From Vitrella brassicaformis CCMP3155 (taxonomy: Eukaryota > Protista > Chromerida): a DNA stretch of 64,000 nucleotides. Where the stretch lies: positions 112,301 through 176,300 of the forward strand of contig CDMY01000182.1 of the NCBI GenBank assembly GCA_001179505.1, read 5' to 3'. Positions 5,963-64,000 of this stretch are shown in pieces (position 1 is the first letter of the stretch; the number at the start of each line of letters is the position of its first letter). The position numbers and the translations under genes are program-made. The notes under the pieces were generated by a model, which was not told the DNA's origin, made no database searches, and was given only the letters and a program-made list of their open reading frames with translations.

Positions 5963-6262
5963 NNNNNNNNNNNNNNNNNNNNNNNNNNNNNNNNNNNNNN
6001 NNNNNNNNNNNNNNNNNNNNNNNNNNNNNNNNNNNNNNNNNNNNNNNNNNNNNNNNNNNNNNNNNNNNNNNNNNNNNNNNNNNNNNNNNNNNNNNNNNNN
6101 NNNNNNNNNNNNNNNNNNNNNNNNNNNNNNNNNNNNNNNNNNNNNNNNNNNNNNNNNNNNNNNNNNNNNNNNNNNNNNNNNNNNNNNNNNNNNNNNNNNN
6201 NNNNNNNNNNNNNNNNNNNNNNNNNNNNNNNNNNNNNNNNNNNNNNNNNNNNNNNNNNNNNN
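5963..6262. other. Assembly gap (300 N) flanked by poly-G runs
   Basis: N run read directly; G tracts on both sides. Confidence 0.98.
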
Positions 6263-6711
6263 GGGGGGGGGCATCTGCACCGCACTTTTTGACCCGCAAT
6301 TGCCGCTCGCTCCCCCCCCCTCTTCCCCCGCTCTCTCGTGTTATGTGTGTATGATTTGCTATACGACGACCTTTGAACTTTCGGACACGCCACCAATATA
6401 TATATAGACTATTTCAAAGCGCACATGAAGTCTTTTTGTTTTTTTGTTTTTCATTTTCATTTTCATTTTCGTTTTTCATTATCGGTTCCAATTCTCATTT
6501 CCACCACGCCCCGCTAGCACTCAAGTCCCGTTTCACTAGTGATTATCGCTGCCCGGCCGTTGCGTTTGTTTGGTCATTTTCACTGTTACTTTCTGCGTCG
6601 TGCTGCAAGTTTAATCCCATGTCTCCCCACCTTTTTTTTTCTTTTAAACCTCATTTTGTGACTGCAAAGCAGCACGACGAATGTGCATTAATCTCGCCAT
6701 TAGAAGGAAGA

Positions 6712-6955
6712 AGGAACCAACGAAGAGGCTGGCCATGAATGACTTATCCATTGTCTCTGTCTTGTCCATCCACCAGTCCAGGTGATGATCTTCCCTAACA
6801 TGATCTTCCCTAACATAGCAGAGATCATTGCTAAGGAGGTGAGCATCTCTCCGTCTTCTTCTGCGATGCCCATTCTGGAGAAATGCGCGGGTATTCTCGT
6901 GCTGATTACGATTGAAGCCTTCATGGAGACCATTCTGATTACCGTCCGTGAGACA
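6712..6955 (+). pseudogene. Isolated fragment of the multi-TM gene family (near-identical inverted copy of ~15537-15772)
   Basis: Matches the reverse complement of 15537-15772 (…IIAKEVSISPSSSAMPILEKCAGILVLITIEAFMETILITV…) and carries an internal 15 bp duplication gatcttccctaacat. Confidence 0.7.
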
Positions 6956-7816
6956 TGATCACAATGGTGGACACACAACACACATGACACCCACACACAT
7001 GGATGGATGGATGGATGTGCACTCAGTTACCTTCGCAGCCTCGCACGCTCCTTAATGCGCTCCCATGCCCACCCCTCGCTGCCCTCCCTCTCCGCCTCCT
7101 TCTCCTCCTCTACATCGTCCTCTGACTGGTCATCAAAATCCTCTCTCTGTCTCTGTGGGCTGCGCAGAGGAGGCTTCTTGCTGCCCCCTCCCCCCAAGTT
7201 GTGAGCCACGTACGAGTGGCAGTGAACAGGTGCGTGTTTGTGTTATACCACTGGTAGGCAAGAGAGAGAGAATGAGCTCGTCCTCACCATCATCAGAGGC
7301 TGAGGTTACAGGTAAAGGCTCACAGACATATCATCGTCTCTTGCGATCCCTCTCTATGTCCTCCGCCGTCGCTGAGGATGGTGCATGCTGGCGTGTTTGT
7401 CGCGTGATTGAGAGTTGGTCGTTTGACGCAGTTCATTTCATGAGAGACCGACAGACTCTACCTGCCGTTACGCTATGACTCATCAATGTGTTTCCACAGG
7501 AGCCCAGATTTGCTAGGGTTTGTTACGTAATACAAGATCTCCATCTCTAAACCACCCACATATCCACGGACACACACACACACACACACACGTGTCAAAA
7601 ATCGCATACATTCGTGCAGCCATTCGTTCTTCGTCACAGGAGAGAGGGGAGGGGAACGGGGGTATCAACAGTGTATGTTAACATGCACGCGCCAGTCAGT
7701 CAGTCAGTCACAAAAATCTAGCAGCATCTCATCGACCTTCTTACATAGACGCGCTCACCCACGCACACGAGGGAGGCCGTGCGCACGCCGAGACATCCTG
7801 GACGCCCTCACGCCAT

Positions 7817-10800
7817 TCACGCGGCGACGGCCACCTTAGTCTCCTCTTGCTGGTCCTCCTCTTCTGACGGCGGCTCCACCCAACGGCCGTGCTCCTGACA
7901 GACGCACACAGAGCGAGACACAGAGAGAGACAGGGAGGCACAGGTTGGTGTCGTGTCTCGTGTGAATGGGCTGTGTTGTGTGGCTCAGTGGGTGGCTGAC
8001 CTTGATGAGGTCCACGAGTCTGTCGCAGGCCTCCTCGTTGGGGATGCCCCGCTTGACCACCTCCTTTCCCACATACAGGTCGACCTTCCCAGGCGCCCCA
8101 CCCACATAGCCGAAGTCCGCATCCGCCATCTCACCCGGACCATTGACGATGCACCTACAAACACAACACACAACACACAACACACAGCGCCCACAGTGTG
8201 CTCATGCCGCCCGTGAGCGTGTTTCGTGGCTCTGAGCGCTTACCCCATGACAGCGATTGAGACGCCCGGCAGGTGTCCCGTTTTCTGCCGTATCTGTTCG
8301 GTGACCTCCTGCAGGTCGAATAGCGTCCGACCGCACGAGGGGCACGAGATGAACTCGGTCTTGATGTTGCGCATCCGGGAACCCTAAAAGCGTGTGGATG
8401 TGCCTGTGTGGTGCTGCAGCTCCGTGCGTGTGTGAATGAGTGTGGCCTCACTTGAAGGATGCTGAAAGAGATGAGCCTGAGGTCCTCAAGGGAGAGCGGG
8501 GCGGAGGCGGGCAGACCACCCTGTGGGAACACCCCCACACACAGGTACCATGGTGTGTGCTTGTGTGTGCCTGTGCTACGCTATGCGTCTGTGTATCCAC
8601 TCCCCTCTCACCTCGACCTCGACCATGATTCCCTCGCCGAGTGCGTCCACCAGCAGAGACCCCACCTCCACACCGCTTGATATCACCAAATCCTGCACAC
8701 ACAACACAACCACACGCGCAAATGGATGCGACACATAGATATCTGCAGCCGCATCCCCGGCCACCCACATACGCACATACGCACAGACCTCAGCGTCGCT
8801 CGCCTCCTCTTGGGTAAAGTAGAGGTGGTGGATCACTGCCACCCTCAGGCCCGCGCGCTTGATGTGGTCGAACACCCTCCTCGAGGCGTGCAACCGACTC
8901 AACGACGGCTTGATGCGCAACAGAATCAAGGCCGGGGACGGCTGAAACACCACACACACACACACACGCACACGTCGGTTGTGCAGGGTTTGCTGTGTGT
9001 CTGTCTGTCTGTCTCTCTGGTTTCCCATGTTGGTTCGTACTTTCATTGTGCTGAGCTGCTGGAGCTCGTCATCGGTCTCATCGCCTTCCACCTCAACCGC
9101 AAGACGAATCACACCCTCGGGGAGCGCATAACCTGCACGCCCACATCCACCCACGGATGGATGGACGAGTGCATAGAAATGTGTGTGTGCAGCGGTTGTG
9201 TGTGTGTGTGTGTCTACCGTCAGGGCCGGTATCTCTGATGTACTCCTTCAGAGTTATCACCCCAACCGCATCGGCGACTGTGGGTGATTGAGTGGGTGAG
9301 CGTGTGTGCAGAGCACAGAGGACAACAAATGCCATCGATTTTGGCTTGTGCGAGTGGTCTGTGTATCTTCGTGCTTTGCTTCTGTGGCTCACGTGGCTTT
9401 GCCCTCAGCTCTGCCATGGGCGCCAGGATGCCCACGTTCACCTACAGAGAGGTATCCCATAACACACATCGCATTGCATTTTCGCGAAAAGCTGTGCCAC
9501 GTGGGTATGTACAGCGCACATACCTCCTGCAGTCGTCTGAGTGCGAGCCTCCTGCCGGCGTCGTCCGTGTCGGGCAGGCGGCGCATGAAGATCGAGTCGC
9601 TCGTGGCGATGTCCTTGAAGGGCATACCCACCACCAGCTTGCACCCAAGCTGCGCGTACAGCTTGTCCTGTGACACACAGCGCCACACAACGGGGAGCGG
9701 TCAGGGGGGCTGTTGGGTGGCTGGGTACACCCTCACAGGTTGTTGCAGGTCGTCAAGTGTGACGGCGCTGAGGACCGATCCGTCTCGGTTGAGGAGGCCC
9801 CGCACGTCCCACGTGTCCGACGGCTCCTGGGAGGGAAGATCCACCTGGGGTCGCGCAATCACATACACACATAGATACAACAACATGCAGCAATCGAGTC
9901 GATGTGCGCATATTCATGAGCTTGGTGTGTGTCTGTCTCGTGTTGTGTCTGTCGTGGTGTACTGTACGCACCTCTCTCCTCGAGAAGGTCTGGAAGTCGC
10001 GTGTAGTCTCTTCGAACTCGGGGACAGCCAACTGCACACAAACACACCACATCACATCACATCACATCAACTACAAGTGCGGTGGGTGGGGAGGCAGTGG
10101 CTGCATCAAGCACCTGTTTCTGTCTCGCTTCGGGTGTCAGTTTGCTCCTGGCGATGTCGGCCAGCTTCCCACAGGGCGTCAGCTCGTACCACGGGTCCTG
10201 ACAAGCAGGTGGAGGGGACAAACACACACACACGTTGAAACATCCACCCAAATGTGTGCATACGTTTGTGTGAGGATCTGTCTGCGCGCGAGTGTGCGTG
10301 TCGGTGGGGTGGCTCCCTCGCCCCCTCCCTCCCTCCTTGCTGCATATGGTACGTACCTCAGTGAGTGAGACCCTGATTGTGTCGCCGATGCCGTCCTGCA
10401 GCAGCGCGCCGATGCCTATGGCGCTCTTGATGCGACCATCCTCACCTGCAAGACAACACACCATTCACAACTACCTGTTTGTGTGTGTACTGTGGGATAT
10501 TCTGCCTCTCACCTTCGCCCGCCTCGGTGACGCCCAGGTGTATGGGGTAGGCGAAGCCGCGCGCATACATCTCGGCTACCAACAGCCGATATGCCTGCAC
10601 ACGCACATTGACAAATCGATAGGTAGGTGATACAGACAGGCGCGTGTGTCGGCGTGTGTGTATGGGGGCAGGGGGATACCTGCGCCATGACTAGCGGGTT
10701 GCTGGCCTTCATCGAGAAGCAGAAATTGTGATAGTCGTTGGCCCTGACACCCATACACGTATTGGGTATGACATGGCTGAATATGCGGGCACCTGCTGCC

Positions 10801-12469
10801 CCCCTCCCTCCCTCCCCCAGCACAATTCCCTCCCCACCGGCAGATGTCTGCAAATTCCAGCGCCGACTCGACCATGCCTCTCGGGGTGTCACCTGCACAC
10901 ACCCACCCCACAGACGCATCTTCATGTGTGTACATCCCTTATGTGTGTGTAGATCCGATCCGTGTGTTATGGGTGGGTACCGACCGAAGAAAGAGAGGAT
11001 CCTGTTGCTGAGAGAGCCGTGGTTGGTGCCGATGCGCATCGCCCGGCCCAGTGACTTGCACTTCTCAACCAAAGGGGTGAACAGCTGATGGATTGTACGT
11101 ACCCAGGTGCCCAGACACAACGTCACACTTGTGTGTAGGGACGGACATACAGCACGGCCTCTCTGCGTGTGTCCGTGTCTGTGGCCTCTCGCTAATTAAC
11201 CTCTTCGATGCGCTCACGGCCCTTCAGGAAGTCACTGTAGTCGTCAAACACCTGAACAACGCACACACACGCGGTCATGCGAACTATCTGCACGCACAAT
11301 GCACAGTGTGGGCGCTCGCGGCACTTACCAGTTGGTCGAATTTCTTGGCCCCGTCGGCGAAGTTGCCTGGGTTGACGCGCACCTTCTCAAAGGCGTCGGC
11401 AACCATCATGGCCACCTGTCACACCACACACAAGACCACACACGAGACAACACATCCATTCATGATCCATCCATCCATCCAGGGCTGGGTGGCTGACCTT
11501 TGGGGCAAAGTGTATGTCGGCCACGAGAGGGATGTCGTATCCTTTTTTGAAGAGCTCCTCGCGGATGGCGGCGGCGGCCTCGGCCTCCTTGAGGCCCTGC
11601 ACCGTCAGACGACAGATGTCCGCACCCGCATCGGCGATACGCATCACCTAATCCAACCAACCAGCCAGCCAATGCAAGGCACAGGAAGGCGTTCAGGATT
11701 CAGGTCAGGTCAGGTCACTCGGGCAGCGGCCATGTTTGTCCGTGTGCGTGTCACGTCACCTGCTCGACACTGGCTTTGACGTCTCTAGTGTCTGACGTGG
11801 TCATCGTCTGCAACGCGATGCGATGCTGGCCGCCTGCATCCGTCGCGTCGCACCCATACACAAGGTCGAGTGACGTGCACGTCTGCAGTGCATGCCAGCC
11901 AACAGTGTGTGCCCGCACCTACCTATCGGCACTTTGCCGATCCACACGGTCTGCGAAGGAAACCTGCAAGACAAAAGGCGTCCGTCCATGAGTGAGCGCT
12001 CGGAGGCAGGCAGACATGACATAACGATAGACGGCGGTCGATGGACTGTGCTGACCTCTCAGTGGTCCTCAGCGACTCGCAGTACTTCTTGAGGTCGGCC
12101 GGCGACGTCTGTCCGGGCATCAGGATGGGCGACGCTGCCTCGGTGTCCATCAGCTACACACAGCATGCACAAACACAACACAGCACAGGACGCTCTCATG
12201 CAGCTGACGTTGTGCCATGATGTGCTGCACTCACGTATTGACTGCGCCGTAGCCTCTGAAGACGCGGACCGTCAGACCTGCACAATTTAACACACCAGAG
12301 CCATATGGTACAGACAGACAGCCATTGCCTGCACACAGGTAGACAGACGCACACACACACACACACACCTGAGTGGTGTTGTGCCAGGCACCACGAATGC
12401 GCCGCCAATCTCGCCGCATCGACCAACGTGACTGCCTGCCAACAGCAGGAGCAGTGCGGCTGAGCGCAT
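7817..12469 (-). CDS. ispG: (E)-4-hydroxy-3-methylbut-2-enyl diphosphate synthase (IspG/GcpE), plastid-targeted, MEP pathway
   Basis: Exons encode [11 protein letters not shown]…[64 protein letters not shown] and [30 protein letters not shown]-terminal signal peptide [12 protein letters not shown]…GAFVVP. Confidence 0.95.
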
Positions 12470-12784
12470 GGCAGAGCCAGCCACGCACTTCATTCACGGA
12501 CGCCCGAGATGCGATGTGACGCAGATCAAAATCCGCACCGGATGTCAAACTCTGACCTTTTTTGGCTTGGCCAGCGTCTTATTGCAAGCGCATGACCTCG
12601 GATCTTGGCGAAAAAGGTGGTCGCCTCTTGCGAGCTTTTCAATACAGGGTGTTTCAATACAGCAACGCGCATTGCGAAGAAGCAGAGCGCTGCCAGGCCT
12701 TGTTGCAATCGATTAAGTTTGTTTTAAGTCCGCGAAGGCGCAGAGATGTCGTCGTCGTCGAGTGGCAGCGGAGATCCGAAGAAG

Positions 12785-13775
12785 ATGCGTCTGCTGTCGC
12801 TGACACTGTACCGCTGGAAGCCCGACCACCCGGTGGAGCTGTCGAGTCACTATGACCTCTCCCACTTCCCCTTCTTCCAGCGCAAGACGGTGCAGGAGCA
12901 CATTCGGTTCCACAGCCGGCTGATATGCGCCCGCACGCCCGTCGGCCGCCGCCAGTCGGTGGAGTTCGAGCAGAACCTCGGCAACTGCCACGTGTACGTG
13001 CACCCATCGGGCCTCGCAGCCGCCGTACTCACCAGCGCAGAGTACCCAATGCGGGTGGCTTTCTCGATGCTCAGCGAAGTCCTCAGGCTATTCCAAGACG
13101 TATGTAAGCACGGAGCGGAGAGCATTTGTCGCTCTGCATCGCACCCTACCATTGTGGGAGAGAGGGAGGGAGGGAGGGAGGGGCATGGCACGCACAGCAT
13201 AACACAAACACTGATGATTTTTCCAATTTTCCTCGTGTGTTTTGTGTTGTGTTGTGTGCAGAAGTATGGTGGTCAGTGGGAGAACACCGACGCCGACAGG
13301 TCCATCGGCTTCACGGAGGGCGACGAGTACGTCAAGAAGTTCCAAAACCCCGCAGAGGCTGACAAACTCACCAAAGTGCAAAAGGACCTGGACGAGGTCA
13401 GTCAGCCACCGGTGGCATGCCATGCCATCCACATGGGGCAGGCAGCAGACATTAAAACAAAACGACCGATTGATCAGCGCATGTGCGTGTGTGTACGTGT
13501 GGGTGTAGGTGAAGGACGTGATGCTCAAGTCCATAGGTGAGATGCGCTGCTCGTTAGCTACACACACACACACTCATCCACAGACACACCAGACCCTTGT
13601 GTGTGACGTGACCTGGCGTGTGTGTTGTCGTCCGTCCATTCATTTATCAGAGGATTTGCTGCAGCGTGGCGAGACGCTCGATTCGCTCATGCAGAAGAGC
13701 ACTGACCTCAGCCAGACGTCATACCAATTCTATCGGACAGCCAAGAAGAACAACCAATGCTGTCAGCTTTACTGA
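12785..13775 (+). CDS. YKT6: YKT6 longin R-SNARE (alternative start 12746)
   Basis: Longin domain (DLSHFPFFQRKTVQEHIRF…EYPMRVAF), ADKLTKVQKDLDEV, SNARE LLQRGETLDSLMQKSTDLS and C-terminal di-cysteine prenylation motif CCQLY*. Confidence 0.95.
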
Positions 13776-14833: not shown

Positions 14834-17801
14834 CTACTTCTCTGCTGCAGTCAGACAAGTTGCCACTTCTCTCAGCAGTCGCAGACTTTCTCTTAGCTGC
14901 ACAGAAGGAGCGTACCCGTTGGCATGTCGCCTAGTCAGTTTGATGAAGAATATGATTTGGTCTATGAGCTGCATGAGATGGAGCAATGGGTTCTTGAGGC
15001 TGACTTGTCAGACTGGCACATATATGGTTAACCAACCGTATGGCACCAGGTCCACATTGCCAAATGCCACAAGTATAATCCCACTCATCAGGCGCAGACA
15101 GATCGAGGTTAACACGGACGCACCGAGAAATTGGACTTTTCTACGCTCGTGTCTTCTTAAGAAGGGCCCAGGCCAAGAGACACAAGCGAGAGCCGAAACC
15201 ACACACAAATGCAGTCCGTATGTAATGTGACACGTCTGCGCGGTGAGCGCCCTGTCTGCTTCATTCATCAAAAGGCAGGACTGACGTAAGGACAGAGTAT
15301 CGATTCGATCTCCTCAAATCGCTGCTTGCTAGCGACACGCCCTGTATAACCCCTTACCAAGTAGAAGAAAAGAAAAAGAGTCATAGCTTGTGCAGTCCAC
15401 CATAGCACGACTATTCTCAGCCACATCACGCCCCTCTCGCGCTCGGCTCGTAAGACGGGTAAATTGTGCAGACGCACCAGCAGCTGTACAAGAGAGAGAG
15501 ACGAGGCTTGTCTACGGTGCATTCACCGGCTGTCTCAATGTCTCACGGACGGTAATCAGAATGGTCTCCATGAAGGCTTCAATCGTAATCAGCACGAGAA
15601 TACCCGCGCATTTCTCCAGAATGGGCATCGCAGAAGAAGACGGAGAGATGCTTACCTCCTTAGCAATGATCTCTAATATGTCAGCGAAGATCATCACCTG
15701 GACAGGTGGATGGACAAGACAGAGACAATGGATAAGTCATCATGGCCGGCCTCTTCGTTGGTTTCCTCTACCGTGGACTCCGTTAGCAGCGTGATCGACA
15801 CTTGGTCGGCAACGGCCCTCATGTATCGCGGCGAGATGCTCTGTGTGGCAAAAGCGACACTCATTGACACCTGTCGAAGCAGCCCGGAGTCGCCTCTGCT
15901 GAATGAAGCGCGACGGTCGGCCGATGTTTCCCCATGTCTCGCCTTCAATGCCGAAAGTCTTGCTCTTGCCCATCGCCTTGAGCCCACAAACATCAGAATG
16001 CCTAAAAGACGGAGCGCGTCCAAACATGTGCACAAGGTATCCATCCTTACGGTACGGTTGCATCGTGTCCGTGACAAAGTCATACCTGCATTCGAGAATT
16101 GGCATGCTAACATGACAGAAAAGTATCGCACTGGCTCCATTTGTTGACTTACATTGCGAAGAGAAAGGAATTAAGCGCCTTACTCGATAGCCTCTCCATC
16201 TTGGCTTGCATCAATCTTGCATCAGACTTGCGGGCACGCAATGAAATAATCGATGTGGTTCAAGGTCCATTATCAAGTCACCTTGGAACAATTAAGTAGG
16301 AAAACGTGATGTAATTGAGTAGCAGTGACGGCGTCAAGGGGTGACCTTGCTGAAGCAGCCACAAGGAGAATGTCACAGCTCACATGGGTATATTGAGCAG
16401 AGCGTCGTTAGATGTGCGTGTGCTTTCTCTTGCCTTGACTGAGCGGCAAACATAGCTTGCCAAACTCATGAATGGAGCGCCAGTGATCATTGCCACTATC
16501 ACTATCCTTCCACGCTCGCTGTCGCTTGTCGCTACGGCCCCGCGAGGAAGGAACACAGTAATCGCGAGAAACACCCACACCTGGAAGAGAGTCAAAGAGT
16601 GGGGCCAATTGAATCGTTCACATTCACACAGAGGCTTTATCAACAAGTAAAGACACACCTGGAAGAGGCATCTGGGAAGGAAACAGTGGACAATACACTG
16701 TGAGACACGTATTGATCATCGTATTGGTGCGATTATTGCCTACATCAGAGTCATCTGGGTCGCATACTCCTTTTTTCTTGCGAAGTGCTCTGTCTGAGCT
16801 GCGCGATAAAGCACCAGGGCGCGATACAAATGGTTAATGCCCAATGCAATACAGCGATCATACGCCTCCATTTTTGGGGCCAGCCTTGAAAATGGGAAAC
16901 GCTGAGTAGAACGCAGCATATCAACATAGGACCGAAAATGGGTAAGGTCCGGCGCATGCGAATCAGGCTGCGTCGCAGACAAGGGCCCTCGATCAGCAGG
17001 GAGAAAACCACGGGAAAGCTGAGGATTGTCAACACTCGCCTGGCAATATCGAGCAGTATCCAGCTTCGATTCCATGAGTCTCTCGACTGGACGCATCCAA
17101 AATAGAGGCCGACTCCGAGAGCTGACAATAATCCCGCGACGATAAAGGCAATTGTGACTTGACGGAGCACGCTCCATCCCGCACGCCGCAGTGTGATCGA
17201 GAGGGCTTCTGGAGTGTATCTCGCGACAACGACCTCCTCTGTTGTCCCGTCATGCCTTCTGATGGGGCGGTATTCAAGGGTGCTGTCGAACTCCTCGTGC
17301 GCCGCAAAGTCAGCCACAGTCCGAAACTCACGCACCGACTCTGTTATCTCTCTCTGGGCAAATCAGAAGACAAAAAATACTGCATGCCTTCTGCGTCTGT
17401 GTGAGTTTGTGTTTGTGTTTGGGTGTGTGTCTTACCTCCTCCTTCCGAAGTGCCTTAGCTTGCCCTCGAGCTTGCCCGCCCTCTGCCAAATTGATGTCCT
17501 CACAGCTGCGCTGCCAGCCCATTTTGGTGTCCTCAGCAGCCCCAGGCTGACCCTCACTAATCGCGATGGTGGCCGTCCTGTCCGTTGCTGTCCCGGTATC
17601 GCACACATGATCCTCTCCTCCTCTCGGGAGGTCCCGATCACCGTTCAATGACATCATTGGTGGCTTGGGGGAGAACCATGTTAGAGTGAGGCTTCTGATG
17701 CGTGATGCGCCCTCGGTCCGGGACATCCGCCTTTCCTTCAAGTTGTCTTGAGTTGCCTGGGGGCCCCCACCCTGTGGACCGGCGATCGCGCGGAGACGCA
17801 T
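14834..17801 (-). pseudogene. Multi-pass membrane protein family, copy A (frameshift and premature stops)
   Basis: EFRTVADFAAHEEFDSTLEYRPI…, FLPRGAVATS…, ISPRYMRAVADQ and LLVRLHNLPVL align with copy C. Frameshift/stops near 16740-16790 and an in-frame TGA at 15008. Start uncertain. Confidence 0.6.
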
Positions 17802-18390
17802 GATGGCTACGATGTCAGCGACAGAAAGGTCCGTTGTTTGTCCTCTCTCACCCACCGGCGGGATAGTACGGGTTTCTCAAGTGAACGGCGATGATGAGCC
17901 AGATCTCGATGTCACCAGCATCTCATCCGATCGGCAAGCCACAGACTCACTGGATGAAGGCAAGAGGACAGTCGATGGCGAGCACCTCGTGCAGAACGAC
18001 CACTGGCATCAGACCGACACTGCGCAGCCCGTCGATTGCGCCACGCACCTTGTCAATATCCAAGGTGATGAAGGACACGGCGCTGAGCACCGAGCCATCT
18101 ACCGGACAGCACTCTCATCGACAAGCACCGCCTTGACGCTGGCAGAGACGCTCACTGGCCCGCAGAAGAAGAAGCAAACGCACAGTCATCCCCCTGAGGA
18201 GCTTATGAATGGTGACGAACGAGACACGGAGGGAGATGTTGGCTTAAGGGATTCAGGCTCTGGCAGTCAGCTGCACTGCGAGGAGCGTGCGACAGCAGAG
18301 TTTATGTATGAAGAACATCCAACTACGCTAGAGTACAAGGCGATATCCCTACCCGACGGCAGCACAACAGAGGTCCTTGTCGGCAACGGT
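17800..18390 (+). pseudogene. Multi-pass membrane protein family, copy B, truncated by the AT-rich viral insert
   Basis: N-terminus VVCPLSPTGGIVRV matches copy C (TVCPLSPVRGTVRL). EFMYEEHPTTLEYKAISLPDGSTTEVLVG matches copies A/C; homology stops abruptly at ~18390. Confidence 0.7.
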
Positions 18391-18391
18391 A

Positions 18392-18755
18392 TGTTCCACC
18401 TCCACAGCAACCACCACCACCTCCTCCCCCACCACAAATTCCTCCCGCTAATGGAGGTTTGCCTGAACCATTAGAAGAACCGCCTTATGAACCGCAACCT
18501 AAACCAATTGAACCGCCACCTCCTGCATTACCCGAACCAGCACCCGAACCACCAACTAATTTTCTACCCGATTATCAACCAGAACCTGAAACAGGGGCAA
18601 GACAAATAGCACCACCTGCACCGGAGCCACTACCTGACATTCCACCCGAATGGAACCCTCCTGCAGCAGCCTATTAGCCACCAACAACACACAGGACAAC
18701 AAAAGCCCCAAGAGTAGGTGAGAATATACAACCACTACTACAAATTCCACGTTAA
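18392..18755 (+). pseudogene. Proline-rich viral ORF, 3' part, with in-frame TAG at 18675-18677
   Basis: VPPPQQPPPPPPPPQIPPANGGLPEPLEEPP…PPAAAY*PPTTHRTTKAPRVGENIQPLLQIPR*; the frame continues past the TAG to TAA 18753-18755. Confidence 0.55.
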
Positions 18756-18777
18756 TTTATTCTATTACCGCATCTGT

Positions 18778-19010
18778 AAAAAGAGTTTCAACTTTAATAA
18801 GAAGTATTTATGATTTTGCCTGTGTGCTTCGCCAATGTGGCCATGCCAGTCTTGCAATTCTTCACGAAGAGGTATTTAATGATGGCAAAAAAAATTCAGA
18901 ATTTTATCAATATTTTGATAATGCTACCAATAACTATGGCTTTATTTCAGTGAATGCACGAAGTCCTAACACAGAAATAAAGGAAAATTACTGTGATTAT
19001 AAATCCTTTG
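18778..19010 (+). pseudogene. Packaging ATPase C-terminal half, lying on the opposite strand (inverted segment)
   Basis: KRVSTLIRSIYDFACVLRQCGHASLAILHEEVFNDGKKNSEFYQYFDNATNNYGFISVNARSPNTEIKENYCDYKSF resembles the A32 C-terminal pattern (IR.N.DY…EE.F…F..AT.NYGF…YK). Confidence 0.75.
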
Positions 19011-19426
19011 ACAGACTGACTTATCTGAATAATACTCACATTCATGTGTCCAACAATAGTAAGTAATCTCTCAAATTCCTTACTTCTCGTATCATCCATC
19101 GTAGCAATACTATCATCAAGTATTAAAAGCACTCGTCTTCGCTTTTTTGTCTTTTCTTGATGCTCTGCTAACGCTTTTATCTGCTCTTCTGTTATTTTGG
19201 TTAAAATTTTATGACGTTTTGCACCATTCTTCAACCAGAGTTCCGGCTGAACTGTCACTATAAGCTCATCGTCAAACTTATTTCTATCCCGCAAATACCG
19301 ATATAATGATAATGCAATTAGGGTTTTTCCGGTATTTATGCGTCCCGTAATTAATAATATCCAACACTTCTTCTCGTTCGCTATCTTATTGAATAGCTCT
19401 CGGTAGTTTTGTATTTTTTCGTGCAT
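19011..19426 (-). pseudogene. A32/FtsK-HerA-family viral DNA packaging ATPase, N-terminal half
   Basis: Walker A GRINTGKT, Walker B VLLILDD, and the family motif H.N.S.I.I.Q (GHMNVSIIQISQ). Confidence 0.85.
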
Positions 19427-19451
19427 CTCATTAATATTATATATATAAGTG

Positions 19452-19637
19452 CTACTTTTTCTTCGGTTTCATTTTTGTATTCACTACTCGTTCAATCCGC
19501 CGAGCCACCTGCTCCGCATTTTTTACTTTGGCATTTTTTAGACGCTTCAAAAAAAAATGATATAATATCTTTCCATCATTATTATCCTTGTTTGTATTTT
19601 TGTTTTTTTTCAGTCGTTGAAGCAAATTATTAAGCAT
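19452..19637 (-). CDS. Small Lys/Asn-rich basic ORF in the viral insert
   Basis: 61 aa ORF MLNNLLQRLKKNK…MKPKKK, same strand as and 25 bp upstream of the ATPase. Confidence 0.4.
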   Translation of the reverse strand: MLNNLLQRLKKNKNTNKDNNDGKILYHFFLKRLKNAKVKNAEQVARRIERVVNTKMKPKKK

Positions 19638-20304
19638 GATATAGAATTAATTAAATACTTATATGGTAAAATTCAAAAGAGCAACAGAAATTTTTTAATT
19701 GACTTGAACAAAGTATTTAAAATTCAACGCTGTGCACCGTGACGTGACAATATATGACAGTTTCCACCTGCCCTACCACCATCTGTTCATTTTCTTGCCA
19801 TTCACCATCTGTTCATTGCTCATTGCCTTTCCATTTCTTTTTCTCAGTTGTCACGGGTACATTTTTCATCTCGTGGCAGTCGTCTTTTAATTGTCAATCA
19901 TCTCTTGCTGCTTTTTCTTTCTTTTGAGGCACAGGCAATTGTTCCCTTTCTCCTCGAGCCACGCTTGTTAACACTAAACCCCGTCCACTCTCCCTGTGAG
20001 AGTTGACCGTTAGCAGCTTCAGCCGTTCTTTTATTTGGCTCGTACAGTAAATTCCGTATACCATCCTTTGGTGAGGTGTGAACCTCTGCGGTGTGTGACA
20101 GTGGATCACCACGCTTTCCACTGAACTATGGTGGCAGGTGTGCAATTGCGGGTCTGCTCAATATGGAGGAGGTGGTAAATCACTTACTGAGCTCGCATCG
20201 TCTTTTCAGCGGGTCTCTTGTCGTTTGTGACGTCGCATCTGCCAGTTTCGCTTGTCAGTTGAGTTCCAGTCAACGTTTCCTCTGTTTTCATCCATTGACA
20301 AGCG

Positions 20305-21014
20305 ATGGCGTGGACGACACAGACCCAGTTGCCCTTCTACATCCTGATTTTGGGCGTTCACGCCGTTGTGGTGCATCCGCTGTATCACAGCAAGGTTATT
20401 GACCGCAACAGCAATGACCCCTTCCCGCACAGCTAGTGGGTAGAGGAGATCAATGACATCATTGCGGCCGCTGTGCAAAAGGTGCCTCGCAAGGCGTTGG
20501 CGGAGCAGTTGGCGGAGGGAAGCAGCAGCAGCAACAGCAAGAAGAAACGACCAAGTGTGAACCTCGCCGACTAAGACCACACATGTCGGACCCACGGGTG
20601 CAGCAACAAAGTGGGGTCGGGTCGGTGCAAGGCGTGCCACTGCTGTCACAAGGCGGTGTGCAAGACGCGCGGAAATGCCCACCTCTACCACGGCAACGAG
20701 GTGGTGCAGATGGTTTTGAACAAGATGAAAACGATGGGCATGATGACCGAGGGCAACTTTGTGTGCCTCAACTGCGTCAAGGTCAAGCTCATTCAGGTGC
20801 GTTCGTATGTATCTGTGTGTGCATTCGTGCCCTCTGTACGTACACGTGTGTGTGTGCGCGTGTGTCTGTGTGTCAGGAGTTGCAGACTATCAGTGCGTCC
20901 AACGCCACCAAGGACCTGTGCGAGAACAAGACGATGCAGCAGTTGATGCAGGAGTACTACAATGAGGACAACAACGGAGCTGCCCTCATGCAGGCGTTAT
21001 TTAGTGTGTGGTAG
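20305..21014 (+). pseudogene. Cys/His-rich putative Zn-binding protein, two in-frame stops
   Basis: One frame from ATG 20305 has TAG 20434 and TAA 20572, then C-x4-C…C-x2-CHCC-x3-C…C-x2-C, one intron, and ends …ALFSVW*. Confidence 0.45.
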
Positions 21015-21865
21015 TGTACAGGAGGGGGAGAGAGGATCGTGTGTCGGTCGCTCGGTCGGTCGGTCATTCGCTCTGTATGCGTGCTTGATCGCCTGCCTTT
21101 ATCTACGGACGTATGTCTATACAAACGCCTGTTTGCGGGCGTGGTATTGCTTGCGTGTGTTGATAAATGGTAGGGAGGGATGCGTCGTATCGCTTGCGTG
21201 CGTGTGTTGATAAACGTGGGAAGGGACACGCCAGACACACACAGAGGGGGAGGGCATCTAAACGCACACACACAGGGAACGGGCACCCACACACCACTGA
21301 CTTTTCGCGTCGCCGCTGTGCCATTTGCGTTGAATGAGGGAGGAGGGATGACTAAGCACTTGCTTTTCCATACGGACCGAGGAAAAAGACAAAGAATAAA
21401 TGAAAAACGTTTGCTTTTCGGATGTGTCGAGAATTGCGACAAGAAGCGGTCAAGGTACACTTTGCTGTATATACAACAAAAGCTTGTATGACACATGCAT
21501 TCATGTGCAGACATAAACATGCATGTATGTGACAGTCTTGCCTTCCTACTTCAGGCACTTCAAGCAACACGGGCTTTTGAGGTTGTCACATTGTTATGCA
21601 CCAACTCAGCCCGCTGAGGCCACACGATGCTAGCGACGTCTGCGACAGCCTGCACGCTGTGCATGAAAGTAGCTGTGAATGCTTCTGCCTTTTGAAGTGA
21701 CTGCAGCGACCCAGCCACCTCCAACATCGAGGCAGACTGCAGTGGAGTCTCTCAGCAGCAGTCAGCTTGCTCTCCGCAATCAACATGGTCATAGACCAGC
21801 CCGCATGCATGGAAGGGGAATCGTGCCCCCAAATATCTTGGGGCCAGAACTTCCACCCAACTCGA

Positions 21866-24543
21866 GGATGTCCAAGAATACTGTTTGTCCTCTCTCACCC
21901 GTGCGGGGTACTGTGAGACTTTGCCAATGAGATGGCGATGGACCCTGCGATGATGTGTCTGATGTGAGCAGCAACTCGGCCCAGCCCAGCCTTGGAAACA
22001 ATGGACGAACGACAGAATGATAATGAGGACAAGGGGGCAGCTGATGGCGACCACATCATGATCAACGCACACGTGGGGGCGACCGTGGGATTCTTTCAAA
22101 AGGATGGCGATGAAGCATGCGGTGATGTGTCTGATGTGAGCAGCAACTCGGCCCAGCCCAGCCTTGGAAACAATTTGCTGAACGAACGACAGAATGACAA
22201 TGAGGACAAGGGGGCAGCTGATGGCGACCACATCATGATCAACGCACACGTGGGGGGGACCGTGAGATTCTTTCAAGAGGATGGCGATGAAGCATGCAGT
22301 AATGTGTCTGATGTGAGCAGCAACTCGGCCCAGCCCAGCCTTGGAACCAATCTGCTGGACGACCAGCAGAATGACAATAAGGACAAGGGGGCAGCTGATG
22401 GCGACCACATCATGATCAGCGCACACGTGCGGGGGACTGTGAGACTCCTTCCACGGGATGGCGATGGACCATGCGGTAATGTGTCTGATGTGAACAGCAA
22501 CTCGTCCCAGCCGAGGCTTGCAACCAATTTGATGGAAGACAAAGAGAATGACAATAAGGACAAGGGGACAGCTGATAGCGACCACATCAAGATCACAGCG
22601 TACAAGCATGAGGACGAAGGACGACGAGCGTCAATCAGCTCAATCACAGCCGCCGCAACGACAGGGCAGACGAGCTTTGCAGTCAACGACAGCAACAAGG
22701 CGGACGAAAAGCGAGAAGATACAGAAGAGGGCCGTGTGTTACGTCGCGAGAAGCGGGCGAGCGCTGCATTGATTCGTGAGTTCCGTGAGGCGGCTGGCTA
22801 CAACGCTGCTTACGAGGAGTTTCCCACGACGCTCGAGTACAAGGCGTTGCAATCTGATGACAGCAAACGAGAGGTCCTGATGGGTGCATATTTCAGCCCT
22901 GAACCAGTTTTAGTGACTGTCAGGCGAGCCATGAAAGTCGTTGTGCTGCAGGTTGCGATGGCGCTCGCTCTTACGGCCGTTATCATAAGTTACGCCCCCG
23001 CCCTGTGGCACACGTGTCAATCAAGCGTATTTGGTCCCGCATTCGACATCATTCGTCGTACTGTGAGGGTTTTCCTGTTTGTGATGGTCCTCTTGCAAAC
23101 TACTGATGGACATCATTTACAGAAGATCATCTCTCGGCTGAAGAAATCCTGGCTCATCCTTGCTGTCCCACTAGTGCTGAATATTGTGATCGCTGTCGCT
23201 TATTGGAGACACTGGAATTGTCAATGGAGAACACATCTTATCGGTCCTTTGCTGTGGTGCTGCTTACTCTTATGCCCATACTTGTATTTCCGTCATGCTG
23301 GTGGATCGCTGGGTATCAAGCGTAAACGGCTGTATGCGATCAAACTCGGCGCGGCATGCACGTTGGGTGTTCTTTTGGACGCGGTCTCATTTCAGCTGTT
23401 CTTTCCCCGTGCAGCCACTACATACACCGACGGGAGCAAAAGTCAGCTGGCGCTCGTATTCGTAGCGATCGGGTGGTCAATTTCCTCGCTGGTCAACAAA
23501 CTTATCAGATCAATCCGAGTACATACAGCTATAGCCCAGCTAGAAAACAAAATGAGTATCATGATTAGATATGCATATGTGCGTATACTTGTTTGGTTGC
23601 ATAGGAAGGGCCGCCAACATTCAATGTTCAGCCGACAGCTATCATGGCGATACCCAATGTAATAGCTCCTCGACTCCTCCAATCCAAGATGGCTACTTTT
23701 AGCACCAAACTCTTATACTCCATCTTGATCTCACTGTAGGTTGGCTATGGAGAAAAAAGATTCTAAGACAACTGCTAATGCCTTCTTTCTTTCTTACTTT
23801 TTCATGCTTTCAGGTTAGATAAACCCCTTCATTACCGACATCTTACTGCCATACTGTGCGTCAGTTAGATACAGACGACTGGATTCCTTGAGTGCTTGCA
23901 TTCTACCTGTTCCCCTCTGCATGCAGGGATACTGTTCTATATTGCCGCTAGAAGATTTTTCAAGGGCGGCTGCTGCACTAAAATCAAGTCCGCGTCACAA
24001 GAGAGAAAGCGATCTTTGGTGAGTGACAATATGGCTTTTGGAGACAATGTTCAATCCATTCGGCTATCTGCAGATGAAGACAACGAGGCGGTAACACATC
24101 AACACAGCGGCGCGGTGAGCAGTAATCTCCAGCGGCAGAATACCACCATGACAGCCAGCCTTTCTTTTATCGGCACAAAACCAGCGTCTTCATCTTACAC
24201 CGTCAACCTGCAGTCGGCTCTCGCACCTCTGGAAGTCTCCCCTCGGTACTTGAGAGCTTTGGCAGACCAGATTCACATCTGGTCATTTACTGAAATTATG
24301 GCCCTTCTATTTACACACCTGATGATGCTAATTACCAAGTACATGCACAATGGTGCTTCGTCTATCAGCGTTATGCAGGACATTGCAGGCCTACTTCTGT
24401 TGGTCAGCATGGAATGTGCCTTTGAGGTGATGCTTTTACTTGTGCTGGTCCGCCAGAACAATCTCCCGATGCTATCATCTGCTTACGAGAAGGGTGTGCT
24501 GCGCTGCAGCTTTTTGGTGCAAGCATGTATAGCAATCGCCTAG
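21866..24543 (+). pseudogene. Multi-pass membrane protein family, copy C (long ORF 22001-23662 plus downstream part to 24543)
   Basis: 556 aa ORF with several hydrophobic helices and AYEEFPTTLEYKAL. Upstream MSKNTVCPLSP start is cut by TGA 21928 and a 5 nt deletion. The C-terminal part (VSPRYLRALADQ…LVRQNNLPML) is separated by a degenerate stretch. Confidence 0.6.
21900..22600 (+). repeat. ~180 bp (60 aa) coding tandem repeat, nearly four units
   Basis: Unit DGDEACGDVSDVSSNSAQPSLGNNLLNERQNDNEDKGAADGDHIMINAHVGGTVRFFQE repeated with divergence. Confidence 0.9.
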
Positions 24544-25582: not shown

Positions 25583-26110
25583 GGAGCAGCGAGCTTTATC
25601 TCTCTCTGGCGTTTGGCCTCTCTGTACGCGAGTGTATCGGTTTCTGAGGCACGGTCGCGGCAGGGGTTGGGCTTCATACGGTCCTGCTCGCAGCTAAATA
25701 ATGTGTGGCAGCTAAGCGTGTGTAGTCTACATGGTGAGTGACATGACCTTGTGTGTATGTGTATTCTTGTTGTCAATGGATGGATTGTATATTTCAGAAT
25801 TGCTGGGTCTTTTTCTCTCCCTACCTCTGTCCCCCGCCGACTGCCTGCTTGCTTGGCTCTTGGCCATCTCGCTCTGCGTGCTTGCTTAACTACTCGGTCA
25901 AATGGGATATGTATACCTCCATTCACCCCCTGCCCCTCCTGTGACAATCTGATAAGCGATGGTTAACCCCAAAATCACCTCCATTCACCCCCCTGCTCAT
26001 CCTGTCCATCAAAAAACCCTTAAACCCACGGAGAATGCACTTAGAACCCTTATAGCGAGCTTTTTGGCGAGCGATCAGGGTTTCAAGTCCCTTCAATGTA
26101 TACACAACAT

Positions 26111-26738
26111 GTCTGTCTGTGTCTTCCGACTGAGTTCATGCGATATAGTCGGGAGTCAGTCAGTACACATATGGCATCCCCACATGACGTCCCGAAGACT
26201 GCCCAGACATCGATTGAATCGAATTGCACTCACTGACTGCACGGACACATGCGGGACTCTCTCGTTTGCTTGTCAATCCATTCAGTGGTTCATTGGTTCA
26301 GTCGACTGCTGTCTGCTTCTCTCCCTCCCTCCCTCCCTGCCTGCCTGACATGCACCCAGAACAACGCGTCACACACACTGCCACGCACATGGATGGACGG
26401 ACACACAGAGAGACACGCACCCCACACGAACCACATCGCCAGCCAGATCAGTCAGCGGAAAGAGTCGATGAATGCATTCCCCCCTGTGTGACAATTCCCT
26501 TGCTTGGTGCATCTGGATGGATTGAAAGGCCCCAGTGCACCAACCACTGCCAGCCAGCTGGCCAGGCTTGAAATACATGCATCACACACAGACACGAGAC
26601 ACGCCCACACAACGGTTGGCAGCCAACATAGAAATCTCATCCCATCACCCCCACAAGACCCTCCCTCCACCCACCACCAGTTAGATGACATGCAGCACCG
26701 TTCGCTCTCTCGTAGACGCCGACCAACATGCTCACACA
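26111..26738 (+). repeat. ~630 bp direct duplication, copy 1
   Basis: Near-identical to 27700-28329. Confidence 0.92.
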
Positions 26739-27480
26739 TACACACACACATACACACATACACACGAACACACGAACACACAAACACACAAAGACACAAA
26801 CACACAAACAGGGAGAGAGAGAGCGAGAGAGAGAGGGTGGTCGTGGGAACCAGTGTGTGTGTGGGCGGCTGACGGGGTCAAGTGAGGAGGTGAGATTTTC
26901 TCGATGTTATTCCGGTCCGTAGTAAGCCCCCACAATGATATCCATCTCTTGGATCTTGTCTATCAGGTCTCTGTCGGGCTGCAGACACTCGACAAGGGTA
27001 ACCCTACAGTCAGAAACGTGAAAACCCCGCCAGCGTCGGTGCTGTGTGTGGGGGGCTGCTGCTGACCTCTCCTTTGGCACCTGTCTAGCCCATGAGCTGA
27101 TGCACTCGACCCATGTAATGGATGGACCGGGCCGCACCCACAGAGCCAAACACGGGCCTGCGGAGATGCACAAAAATGGGAGAGGGAGGAGTCAGAGAGA
27201 AGTTCCGCAGAGGCCAATTGGTCGGCGCATAGCAAAGCCGTCATCGAGAGCAATCCTCTGGCACCCGAATGAACCTCCGGGTCGTGGCGCAGCATGCCCA
27301 TCTCGATCTGCACACACAGACGGACACGGACACAGAGAGAGATGCCAGCTTACTTGTCCTTCTGGCTGTTCCTGACTGTGTGTATGGCCTTCCTGTGAGC
27401 CTCTCTGCGGAGATCTGCCGGTTTGTGCGGTCTGTGCCTTTCCCCCAGCACTTTCAAGCTCGCAGGGCTTGGAGCCCCAC

Positions 27481-27508: not shown

Positions 27509-27699
27509 TATGCGTAGGGTTTGCGAATCTCGTGAATGTGCGTGTGCAGGAGTGCGCAGCAGACAGGCAGGCAGCTTCCCACACACGGATGTGCGCAGAG
27601 GGGGGCTGTATGTGCAGAGAGGGGGCAGGGAGGCAGGGAGGGGGCGTGCAGTGCACTTGGCATGTGCCTCTGTGTGTGTGTGTGTGTGTTTGTGTTTCT

Positions 27700-28329
27700 G
27701 TCTGTCTGTGTCTTCCGACTGAGTTCATGCGATATAGTCGGGAGTCAGTCAGTAAACATATGGCATCCCCACATATGACGTCCCGAAGACTGCCCAGACA
27801 TCGATTGAATCGAATTGCACTCACTGACTGCACGGACACATGCGGGACTCTCTCGTTTGCTTATCAATCCATTCAGTGGTTCATTGGTTCAGTCGACTGC
27901 TGTCTGCTTCTCTCCCTCCCTCCCTCCCTGCCTGCCTGACATGCACCCAGAACAACGCGTCACACACACTGCCACGCACATGGATGGACGGACACACAGA
28001 GAGACACGCACCCCACACGAACCACATCGCCAGCCAGATCAGTCAGCGGAAAGAGTCGATGAATGCATTCCCCCGTGTGTGACAATTCCCTTGCTTGGTG
28101 CATCTGGATGGATTGAAAGGCCCCAGTGCACCAACCACTGCCAGCCAGCTGGCCAGGCTTGAAATACATGCATCACACACAGACACGAGACACGCCCACA
28201 CAACGGTTGGCAGCCAACATGGAAATCTCATCCCATCAGCCCCACAAGACCCTCCCTCCACCCACCACCAGTTAGATGACATGCAGCACCGTTCGCTCTC
28301 TCGTAGACGCCGACCAACATGCTCACACA
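27700..28329 (+). repeat. ~630 bp direct duplication, copy 2
   Basis: Near-identical to 26111-26738. Confidence 0.92.
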
Positions 28330-29902
28330 GACAGACAGACACACAGACTGACGAATTCTCTCCCCTCCTCTCGTCTCTATCTATCTTGCCTGTCTTATAA
28401 ATCTGAGAGCCCCACCCACATGATGGATGGACTCACTCACTCACTGCATAAACACACACACATACATAGTTCGTTTATGACATTGATCCACACGAGAGAG
28501 ACATACAGACGTCTGTGTCGTGTGGTCCAAGGAGCTTCCTCACCCTCAACAACACAACACAATGAATGCGATGACTGACATACACGACGACCCAACGCAT
28601 ACCTGAATGACACGCACAGTGCGAGCTGGTGCGTAGGTCTGTCGACAGACAGACCACATAATGTGATAATGTGCACCTCTCTCGCTGCGCACCCACCCAC
28701 CCATCCACTGGTTGGTGGAGTCGATCGACGGCTGTCGTCCTCTCCCTCCCTCACCCACCCCTGTCCTCCCCTGATAACCGCCTCGTGCTCACTGCCATCC
28801 ACGTGGATGGATGGATGATAAACAAATCCCCCCTCACTCACTGTGATAAATATATCCCCTCCGCACAGAGCATCTGGATTGATGGCCCCCAGTGACACGC
28901 AACAGCATCTCACCCATCACACAACACACAGGTTCAGAACAGCCCAGCAGTTGGCTGATGCCAGATGCAGCACCGTGTTCGCCCCCTCGAAGCCGCTCAG
29001 CCACCCACACACATACATAGGCACATAAACGCACTGCTGACCAGTTCTCTCCTCACTTCTCCCCTCTTGCCCCACATGATGGACTTACCCCAACAGTACG
29101 ATGCGCTGAAGGTGACCCAAGACATACCGATTGGAGGACGGCCGCACGGAAGAATAGACAGGCAGACACACGGAGGGTCGACCGGGGAGAGCAGCGAGCA
29201 AGCGAGACAGACAGACAGGTTTGCTCTCTTAGATACGATCTCAGGCAGTGAGTGAAAGGGCAATAAAATCTCACTCTCAACACCACCGGCGGCTCCGTCA
29301 ATCCTCCGCTGTCACGTCACGTGTCTGGTGCTATCACATATGCGCAAAAGGGGCGTCAAACAGACACACACAAGCCAGCCAGCCCACACAAGCTCACGGC
29401 ACCATCCCTTTGCGAAGAGCAGTGCTCACGCGTTGCCCATTCCCGAGAGAGCGGTGCAACACAACACGCACACCCACGCTAGCTACCAAACAAATCATCA
29501 GCGCTTCCTGGATGGATGGATGGATGGACCAAACAGCACACACCTCATGTGTGAGACGATATACATCGGACCGAAACACAACGACAGAAGGGGCGAGCCA
29601 GAGCAGCAAGCAACGAGCAAACGAGACAGACAGACAGGTTGGAGACACACGCAAGACACTCGGTGGATTGGATACAATCAAAGCAACACAAAACACTCAG
29701 TGTACTACCACACACACACAACCAACCACACACACAGAGACGTTGACGCCACTAGAAAAAGACACACAGAACACACAAGCCGGCCGGGCAGAGGACCACA
29801 AAACCGATACACATCAACCAACCACGCGGCCCGCCCCCCTCCGCCCATAGATTAGATCTAGATGCAGGCCAGCTTTGGGGGGCATTCCCTCTCATGCACA
29901 CA

Positions 29903-52600: not shown

Positions 52601-52963
52601 CGGCGTCATGGGCGACTCAAGAACATACGAAATGGTACGGTACCATCTCAGACATACACACACTCACACAGACGGCCGCAAAGGGGGAAGTGGATGTGCC
52701 GTGCTGCGTGTGTCAGGCGTGTTGCATCCGTGCGGTGGCGACGAGCGATTTCATGACGGCTGACTGGTACCACATGCCCTACGATGTCCTGGTCAGCCAC
52801 ACACACACACATACAGAGAGAGAGAGAGATCCATATGTCTTGTGTGTGTGTGTGTTTGGATCAGGCGCGTTGCTCGAGCCGCATCATCAACGAGGTGACA
52901 GGCATCAACAGGGTCTGCTACGACATCTCATCCAAACCACCAGCCACCATCGAATGGGAATAA
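49611..52963 (+). CDS. guaA: GMP synthase (glutamine-hydrolysing)
   Basis: [82 protein letters not shown] and [11 protein letters not shown]. Confidence 0.97.
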
Positions 52964-53899
52964 CTCAACAAACACCTCACACACTTAGTCACTTACACAG
53001 ACAGGCATACAGGCCATCTCCATCTCTCTCTCTCTCTCTCTCTCCATCCATGTCGCTCTCGCTCTGTCTGCGTACGCCCCGCCCATACATATGCGCACGA
53101 CCGACACGCCACAGCTCTTTTTTCCTCAGCTTGCTGGCTGCACCACACCCACTTGGCTGGCTGAGCTGATGTGGTGTGGCGGTTGGTGTCTTCTCCCTCC
53201 ACCCCTCAGCCGGTGCTGGTTGGTCATTTCCGTGGTTTTTCGTACCCTCCTGGATGAATGGATGGATGGATGACTGTGAAGGCGTGAGTGTGTCGCATCG
53301 TTCAGGAAGGAGCGATCTCTGTGTGCGTGTGTGTGTGTGTGTGTGGCTGCTGTGTCTCGTGCGAGTGAGACGAGCGAGCTTCTTGACGTGGTGTCATTTG
53401 CAGCTGTCATGACACACACAGTCCAGGGACAGCCGAACCAACCCTGCCTCTGACTGACGGTGGCCATGACATTACCTGTGTGTGTGCACGTGGTCTTTCC
53501 GTCCAGAAAGCTCTACAAGTGCCCCGGATCTATCTCTTATACACCCACCCACTCAACTCACTCACACACACGCACGCCACGCGTCGCGTACCCATAAACT
53601 GCTCATGTCCATCCATCCATCCATCCATTCGTCCCGCACAGCAAAAAACAGAAGGCACAGAGAGCCTGCCTTCCCATCCAGGTCTCTCTTGTGTGTATGG
53701 TCTCGCTGACTCTCGCATGGCAAACAAAACCAGCACCAATCGCAGCTCTCAGCTCACGCCCCCCGCTCTCCTGCCTTAGTATATTATATACACAGCAATG
53801 GTACACATGTTGGTGGTGTGCACCACTCAGCTCGTGTGCGGGGGGTACAGGATTCCATCCATCCATCCATCCATCTCCATGTGCCCAGACACATGCCGA

Positions 53900-63943: not shown

Positions 63944-64000
63944 CACCAGCTGAGTTGCAGTGTTTGGCCACCTCATCGGAAGGCGCTGTCTCCAACTTCT
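63825..64000. repeat. Perfect inverted repeat: 70 bp arms (63825-63894, 63931-64000), 36 nt loop
   Basis: The right arm is the exact reverse complement of the left arm up to the window edge. Confidence 0.95.

Follow-up and report, generated by a model that had tools for sequence, protein, structure and literature searches.

Within the 64,000-nucleotide stretch of Vitrella brassicaformis CCMP3155 DNA analyzed here (the window), a 1.35-kb block is, with a probability of about 0.75, a fragment of an integrated double-stranded DNA (dsDNA) virus, with an A32-like packaging ATPase gene broken in two by a 233-bp inversion, and a decayed, likely inactive member of a small, probably Polinton-like family (Table 1). 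The locus traces back to a packaging gene of the A32 type that an integrated dsDNA virus carried, and we infer that such a virus integrated repeatedly and that this copy was then truncated and partly flipped. The initial annotation of this DNA had proposed a relic of an endogenous DNA virus, a view upheld here by the viral composition of the block, a gene of the A32 family, un-inverted in-frame sister copies, and bridged host junctions. The split of the ATPase by inversion is new and was absent from that annotation, which described three closely packed ORFs. The block does hold three genes (a cut proline-rich ORF, the ATPase, and a 61-amino-acid [aa] ORF), but these lie in four pieces because the inversion splits the ATPase over both strands. 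Two further candidate genes, a minus-strand 66-aa ORF (18556-18756) and the tail of the ORF at 18947-19468 past the breakpoint, were rejected as antisense read-through.

Table 1. Features of the viral block and of its host surroundings, by position in the window
Feature	Position	Strand	Basis
IspG/GcpE (MEP pathway), intron-rich	7839-11195	-	Pfam
Longin-domain SNARE, intron-rich	12746-13775	+	Pfam
Host membrane-protein paralog B, 5' part, truncated before the membrane helices	17800-18384	+	tblastn with paralogs A and C; GC3 0.59
Left junction, two bases matched to neither paralog contigs nor viral sisters	18385-18386	.	Loose contig ends
3' fragment of proline-rich viral ORF, 96 codons, 5' end cut	18387-18677	+	GC3 0.20; sisters continue upstream
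Putative last codons and stop of the ATPase, as in sister copies	18757-18772	-	Opposite-strand joints 18772/19008 and 18765/19010
Inverted 5-bp copy of 19011-19015, left inversion breakpoint	18773-18777	+	Sequence; "both = 5" in joint tables
Inverted 233-bp segment, C-terminal third of the A32-like ATPase	18778-19010	+	Profile match, tiling
A32-like packaging ATPase, N-terminal two-thirds	19011-19426	-	Pfam Pox_A32, E 1.5e-7; profile positions 5-147
61-aa basic ORF immediately upstream of the ATPase	19452-19637	-	GC3 0.34; sister contigs cover the ORF
Very AT-rich noncoding stretch	19638-19742	.	GC 0.21 in 19601-19700; sister alignment reaches 19742
GC-richer right flank, partly common to another copy	19743-20260	.	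Second contig 19987-20260, 33 differences, 9 gaps
GMP synthase, intron-rich	about 49900-53200	+	Pfam

The flanks of the block are eukaryotic and intron-rich. Pfam scans of 146 long ORFs (150 were chosen from the 191 ORFs of at least 115 aa, and 4 of these were already in earlier scans) recovered exons of IspG/GcpE, of a longin-domain SNARE that is presumably Ykt6-like, and of GMP synthase. IspG points to a plastid-bearing host. The one host intron measured was 80 bp long. Table 1 of PMC9250747 gives 58.1% GC and a median intron of 81 bp for V. brassicaformis, and the GC content of the window, near 55%, and its short intron fit these figures. The GMP synthase exons, compared with PDB, did not point to any one host lineage. 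Several other features of the host DNA were recorded: a Cys/His-rich zinc-finger-like frame to the right of the block, broken by in-frame stops and carrying an 80-bp intron (20437-21014, plus strand), a region with parts present in other copies (20216-20492), a 650-bp direct duplication at 98% (26110-26757 and 27699-28348), a 250-bp inverted repeat pair at 90% (6706-6956 and 15538-15772), a palindromic stretch at the window end (63825-64000), and a 300-N gap (5963-6262).

The block stands apart in composition within the window. GC content was 36.9% in 18390-19729 versus 55.4% in the remaining window; the lowest other N-free window of 1,340 nt had 45.7% (mean 55.5, SD 2.6), and the trinucleotide profile of the block was the most deviant found (0.63 versus a mean of 0.19, SD 0.07). 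The AT-rich character first ascribed to the block is borne out by these measures, but not in its first 310 bp, which have 52% GC because they encode proline. GC3 of the proline-rich ORF was 0.20 versus 0.58 to 0.85 in four host ORFs, and by GC3 and by alignment with sister copies these 310 bp look viral. The ORF had no Pfam match. The block had also been called microsatellite-free, which does not hold strictly: it contains (ACC)4 and (TA)5, and neighboring host gene regions include longer microsatellite-free stretches of 2.9 and 3.3 kb, so this property was dropped as a marker. Rfam gave no matches, exact look-ups of window ORFs in a protein collection found 0 of 7, and among the listed runs containing the sequence none was an RNA run.

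The minus-strand ORF starting at 19426 matched Pfam Pox_A32 with 31.6 bits against a cutoff of 22.8, the sole family above its cutoff. In a comparison of language-model features (Atlas), the top three clusters scored 0.95 and contained Pox_A32 in 23 to 46% of members. HMMER returned 20 matches at an E value of ≤0.001 among 1.84 billion representatives, the best being 227 aa long and 42% identical. The nearest homologs were the metagenomic proteins P0001, P0025, P0026, and P0003, at up to 42 to 43% over the N-terminal half, and the first 10 homolog clusters looked up were all without a protein name. By sequence identity, the ATPase is divergent, its best matches of 42 to 43% being metagenomic proteins. 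We examined the predicted structure of P0001, the nearest full-length homolog (pLDDT of 87): its best Foldseek matches were packaging ATPases of nucleocytoplasmic large DNA viruses (NCLDVs) at 13 to 23% identity, and its best matches in a PDB fold search were viral B204 packaging ATPases (STIV B204). The A32/B204 fold is predicted here for the homolog P0001, not for the window protein. Taken together, Pfam, language-model features, and the fold of this homolog support grouping the ATPase with viral A32-like packaging ATPases, as the initial annotation had it, and not with cellular P-loop families.

A cellular P-loop NTPase (FtsK/HerA or AAA), whether from the host or from a bacterium, is a negligible alternative. 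ResIII, AAA, and STAND were matched weakly, each below its cutoff, as a cellular protein might be; however, Pox_A32 alone passes its cutoff and was matched by 11 of the 12 rows of an alignment of the ATPase with homologs (A1), the best PDB folds are viral, and the block is intronless with codon use unlike that of the host.

The Walker A motif and the Walker B motif are present in the N-terminal half when aligned with homologs, and the sensor Gln follows the third motif (column Q141 of P0001 in the same alignment). In a motif scan, 34 of 36 homologs had an Arg before a conserved His, whereas the window copy has a Gly at this position (codon 19049-19051). The arginine finger is described as conserved in such packaging ATPases in the part of PMC11703096 available to us, and we take the Arg preceding the conserved His to be that finger. 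From the split gene and the Gly at this position, no working motor is expected from the locus.

In a tree of 37 rows built with a quick method from the N-terminal half and homologs of 190 to 300 aa (six longer or shorter proteins were left out), the window sequence grouped with P0001, P0025, P0026, and P0003 (SH-aLRT 94), and this group was nested in a wider set of 17 rows (SH-aLRT 96). The tree has no named references and therefore does not assign the element to a virus group. Neither half of the ATPase found a match in word-seeded protein searches, and tblastn against phages found none either. Viral contigs scanned with the N-terminal half, P0001, a second alignment (A2), P0008, P0026, and a motif pattern yielded no relative; these scans demand exact peptide words and are therefore weak negatives. 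Metagenome contigs had no match to the N-terminal half, and alignment A2 found one distant locus among them. A 3.4-kb metagenome contig of 21 to 30% GC (L001) reads as long ORFs solely when the ciliate code (table 6) is applied, and among its products is a distant A32-like ATPase (623-1564, plus strand; 31% to P0001 over 100 aa); the contig is probably a Polinton-like virus (PLV)-like element of a ciliate or another host with TAR as Gln.

Similarity of the minus-strand frame to homologs ends at about 19011, and the missing part of the protein lies on the plus strand (N-terminal half, 19426-19011 minus; C-terminal half, 18778-19010 plus). Of the 20 HMMER hits, all found with the N-terminal half alone, the 15 of single-domain length were made into a profile, which matched the minus-strand ORF at positions 5 to 147 (E value of 9e-38) and the plus-strand ORF 18722-19063 at positions 141 to 211 (E value of 7e-14), with the next best of 1,818 window ORFs at 0.47. 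The halves tile in alignment A1, but no single continuous ATPase frame exists at the window locus. By itself, the C-terminal half had no Pfam match and only weak, unrelated Atlas matches at 0.81; it was recognized by the homolog profile only.

Un-inverted forms of the gene were found in assembled sequencing runs. The first joint (18778/19011 or the equivalent 18773/19016) occurs in runs X1, X2, X3, and X4, where it retains codon phase, and the second (18765-18772/19004-19010) in X1, X2, X3, X4, and X13, with one 444-nt contig of X4 carrying the second joint with >200 letters on either side. Runs X10 and X11 showed no un-inverted joints. By their joints, the ATPase gene of these sister copies would have about 220 codons. 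Each breakpoint at the window locus carries one of two inverted copies of a 5-bp sequence (18773-18777 and 19011-19015); as the joints of two runs indicate, the window has 7 letters more than the sisters. The available portion of PMC1885836 explains inverted duplications of this sort by staggered breaks; staggered breaks with end joining likely lie behind the flip of the ATPase, as judged by this analogy.

The sister copies were about 85 to 93% alike to the window copy (for example, 15/203, 42/323, 28/444, and 35/255 differences). Three or more haplotypes overlap the ATPase, where the depths add up to approximately fourfold that of the flank; we do not take this value for an exact count of copies. 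In some sisters the ATPase has acquired small indels (+2 at 18894 with -2 at 18974; -1 at 19404), which indicates that they are decaying too. Marine sediment metagenomes from another study (X10, X11, and X13) contained both flanks with 0 differences, at low depth and with no junction crossed, and X11 carried 18776-18877 with 1 difference. Diverged viral sisters, one of them un-inverted, were also present in these three runs. Flanks and sisters in marine sediment indicate that the host and the virus family occur in the wild.

Given the similarity among copies, we considered whether the inversion or the junctions could be assembly artefacts of collapsed viral copies, or the block contaminant DNA. 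Multicopy viral elements do misassemble from short reads, according to the sections of PMC10120064 available, and among the pieces listed, none shows the left inversion breakpoint in the window form. However, contigs with 0 differences cross the left host junction (17400-18417 in X1 and X2; 17400-18423 in X4), the right host junction (from 19419, 19429, or 19631 to 20000; X1, X2, X3, and X4), and the right inversion breakpoint (a 213-nt contig in X1, X2, and X3, extending only 25 letters beyond it against a criterion of 31). The contigs crossing these points in the window form have depths like those of the flanks, and the near-identical segment and the identical flanks in the sediment metagenomes also argue against an artefact, which we regard as very unlikely. 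The run contigs are short; none of them covers the block from end to end, and the best-matching runs may be the very data from which this assembly was made. Both host-insert junctions are bridged, where their absence from all reads had been named as the sign of a contaminant misjoin.

The left edge of the block falls in one of three clustered paralogs of a largely intronless multipass membrane protein without a Pfam match: A (16344-17362, minus strand), B (17800-18384, plus strand), and C (21862-24540, plus strand). Paralogs A and C have frame breaks or stops too, C has approximately three tandem 174-bp repeats at its 5' end, and the family has more paralogs elsewhere. By tblastn, copy B is homologous to A (17362-16754, minus strand) and C (from 22001, plus strand) up to 18384, beyond which the paralog contigs proceed into the next motif of the family. 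Viral homology starts at 18387, with sister copies joining at 18387, 18388, or 18390, so the block does begin where copy B breaks off, as first described. The frame of paralog B extends into the viral DNA, to a stop at 18472-18474.

The initial annotation had further taken the block to be inserted into the membrane-protein gene. A truncated host gene does adjoin it, but the edge lies in the middle of a viral gene, and no clean insertion is seen. That the element integrated directly into gene B, with the present left edge as its insertion site, is highly improbable. Host gene end and viral start are within 2 bases of each other, as such an event would leave them; against it, the edge cuts a viral ORF that sisters extend upstream, and is not an element end. 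To the left of 18387, the sisters run on in AT-rich DNA, and the 30 letters shown there are open in the proline-rich frame. Moreover, beyond the block the membrane-spanning 3' part of copy B is not taken up again, nor does it occur elsewhere in the window, and a search of the block for a terminal inverted repeat or a target-site duplication found neither. A clean insertion into gene B is contradicted by these features. That a truncated host gene is fused to the interior of a viral one points to deletion or rearrangement. Such an event could have followed integration, or a fragment could have been captured at a break; either fits the left edge, and an earlier insertion in or near gene B, followed by deletion, may be part of the best explanation.

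The right end of the block is less sharp. It had been placed at 19729, but it is not fixed there: a sister contig (19419-19742, 42 differences) aligns as far as 19742 at the threshold used and goes on in related sequence, its next 30 letters matching 19748-19777 at 22 of 30 positions by eye. The shared unit may therefore run into the GC-richer flank, which may be a viral end region or co-duplicated host DNA.

These observations are consistent with the following history. A small capsid-encoding virus, whose ATPase would have pumped the genome into the capsid, may have integrated several times in the host lineage. The window copy would then have lost most of its length by deletion or rearrangement, a loss that could have fused the 5' part of the host paralog to the middle of the viral proline-rich gene. 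Staggered breaks with end joining would have flipped the 3' third of the ATPase gene, leaving the 5-bp inverted duplicate.

To which virus group the fragment belongs was judged from gene compactness, copy structure, and precedent, which suggest that the family is probably Polinton-like. The block is integrated, GC deviant, and present in several copies, as Polinton-like elements are. It measures 1.35 kb against their 14 to 40 kb, and the window copy has none of the terminal inverted repeats and target-site duplications that mark them; because this copy is truncated, missing terminal repeats are expected and lower the membership of the window copy only. No capsid, integrase (RVE or tyrosine recombinase), polymerase, or other replication gene is in the block, and Pfam gave no match to a double jelly-roll major capsid or a minor capsid gene among the window ORFs scanned. 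Pfam is a weak detector of Polinton-like virus capsids. The capsid, penton, and cysteine protease genes that mark virophages (Lavidaviridae) are absent from the block as well.

In the main competing reading, the block derives from a giant or NCLDV-related virus (Nucleocytoviricota, Mriyavirus-like), a fragment of which was caught at a DNA break; its later multiplication would be due to segmental duplication in the host rather than to viral integration. NCLDV packaging ATPases are the best Foldseek matches of P0001, but at those low identities, and the library used has few Polinton-like viruses. Past the AT-rich block, GC-richer DNA is common to the window copy and a sister, as would be expected of a co-duplicated host flank, and integrase and terminal repeat are absent; however, leftward the sisters continue in viral-like and not host sequence, and no other viral Pfam family, including further NCLDV core genes, was found among the 146 long window ORFs. 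The ATPase of OmPLV has been found near Mininucleoviridae (PMC12721341, available text), which also favors this reading, but PLV ATPases form three large groups, one of them NCLDV related, according to the accessible part of 10.64898/2026.06.19.733378, so NCLDV-like fold matches do not exclude a PLV. We consider a giant-virus origin unlikely.

Integrated Polinton-like viruses with a GC drop are described as common in protists in the portion of PMC10120064 available, and for Vitrella CCMP3155 three capsid genes, all of a single cluster, are given in its Tables S1 and S4; the Chromera row of its table has no capsid gene. The available text of PMC12721341 groups the Vitrella capsids with Tlr1 and OmPLV and positions them between PLVs and NCLDVs. 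The suggestion that the block represents a new viral lineage is not sustained: the ATPase is divergent, yet endogenous capsid genes of Vitrella have been published and placed in these sources as far as they were available. Maverick or Polinton is not mentioned in 12 of the 16 supplements of PMC4501334, and the literature searched, which covered few subscription journals, contained no description of this locus or its inversion.

The window locus is a dead fragment whose value is as a marker of a small integrated-virus family in a chromerid host; un-inverted copies of the ATPase gene exist at other places in that genome and also in a metagenome from marine sediment. It also links a set of metagenomic ATPases to a protist host type and keeps a record of decay, in which truncation into a host gene cluster was joined by a microinversion that conceals a third of a hallmark gene from ordinary annotation. 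A more speculative, rather doubtful possibility is that the sisters persist as proviruses, full-length and in part intact, that can be induced and that represent a so far undescribed branch of small dsDNA viruses in chromerids and other alveolates, marked by this ATPase and its metagenomic relatives. If so, the photosynthetic relatives of apicomplexans could gain from such sisters their first DNA virus, or virophage-like defender, that is tractable.

Compared with known systems, the block most resembles the endogenous Polinton-like viruses of protists, including the Vitrella loci, as described in the accessible sections of PMC10120064: it shares with them an A32-like ATPase, a GC drop relative to the host, compact intronless genes, and several related copies. 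Unlike those elements, only 1.35 kb is left here, and capsid, integrase, polymerase, and terminal repeats are not seen. The Tlr1/OmPLV/Vitrella/Hydrurus clade, as presented in the available text of PMC12721341, also comprises divergent alveolate elements between PLVs and NCLDVs, and the ATPase has an NCLDV-like affinity; that clade is defined by capsids, whereas the block has none, so the likeness is by description only. With vaccinia A32 and STIV B204, the ATPase shares Walker A, Walker B, the sensor Gln, a core-only size of ~220 aa (by the joints of the sisters), and, on the homolog P0001, the predicted fold. In contrast to these proteins, it is split by an inversion and has a Gly at the arginine finger, and P0001 is only 13 to 23% identical to named viral ATPases. 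The nearest sequences are those of the metagenomic ATPases P0001, P0025, P0026, and P0003, which are encoded on contigs of 1 to 13 kb and group with the window sequence in the tree.
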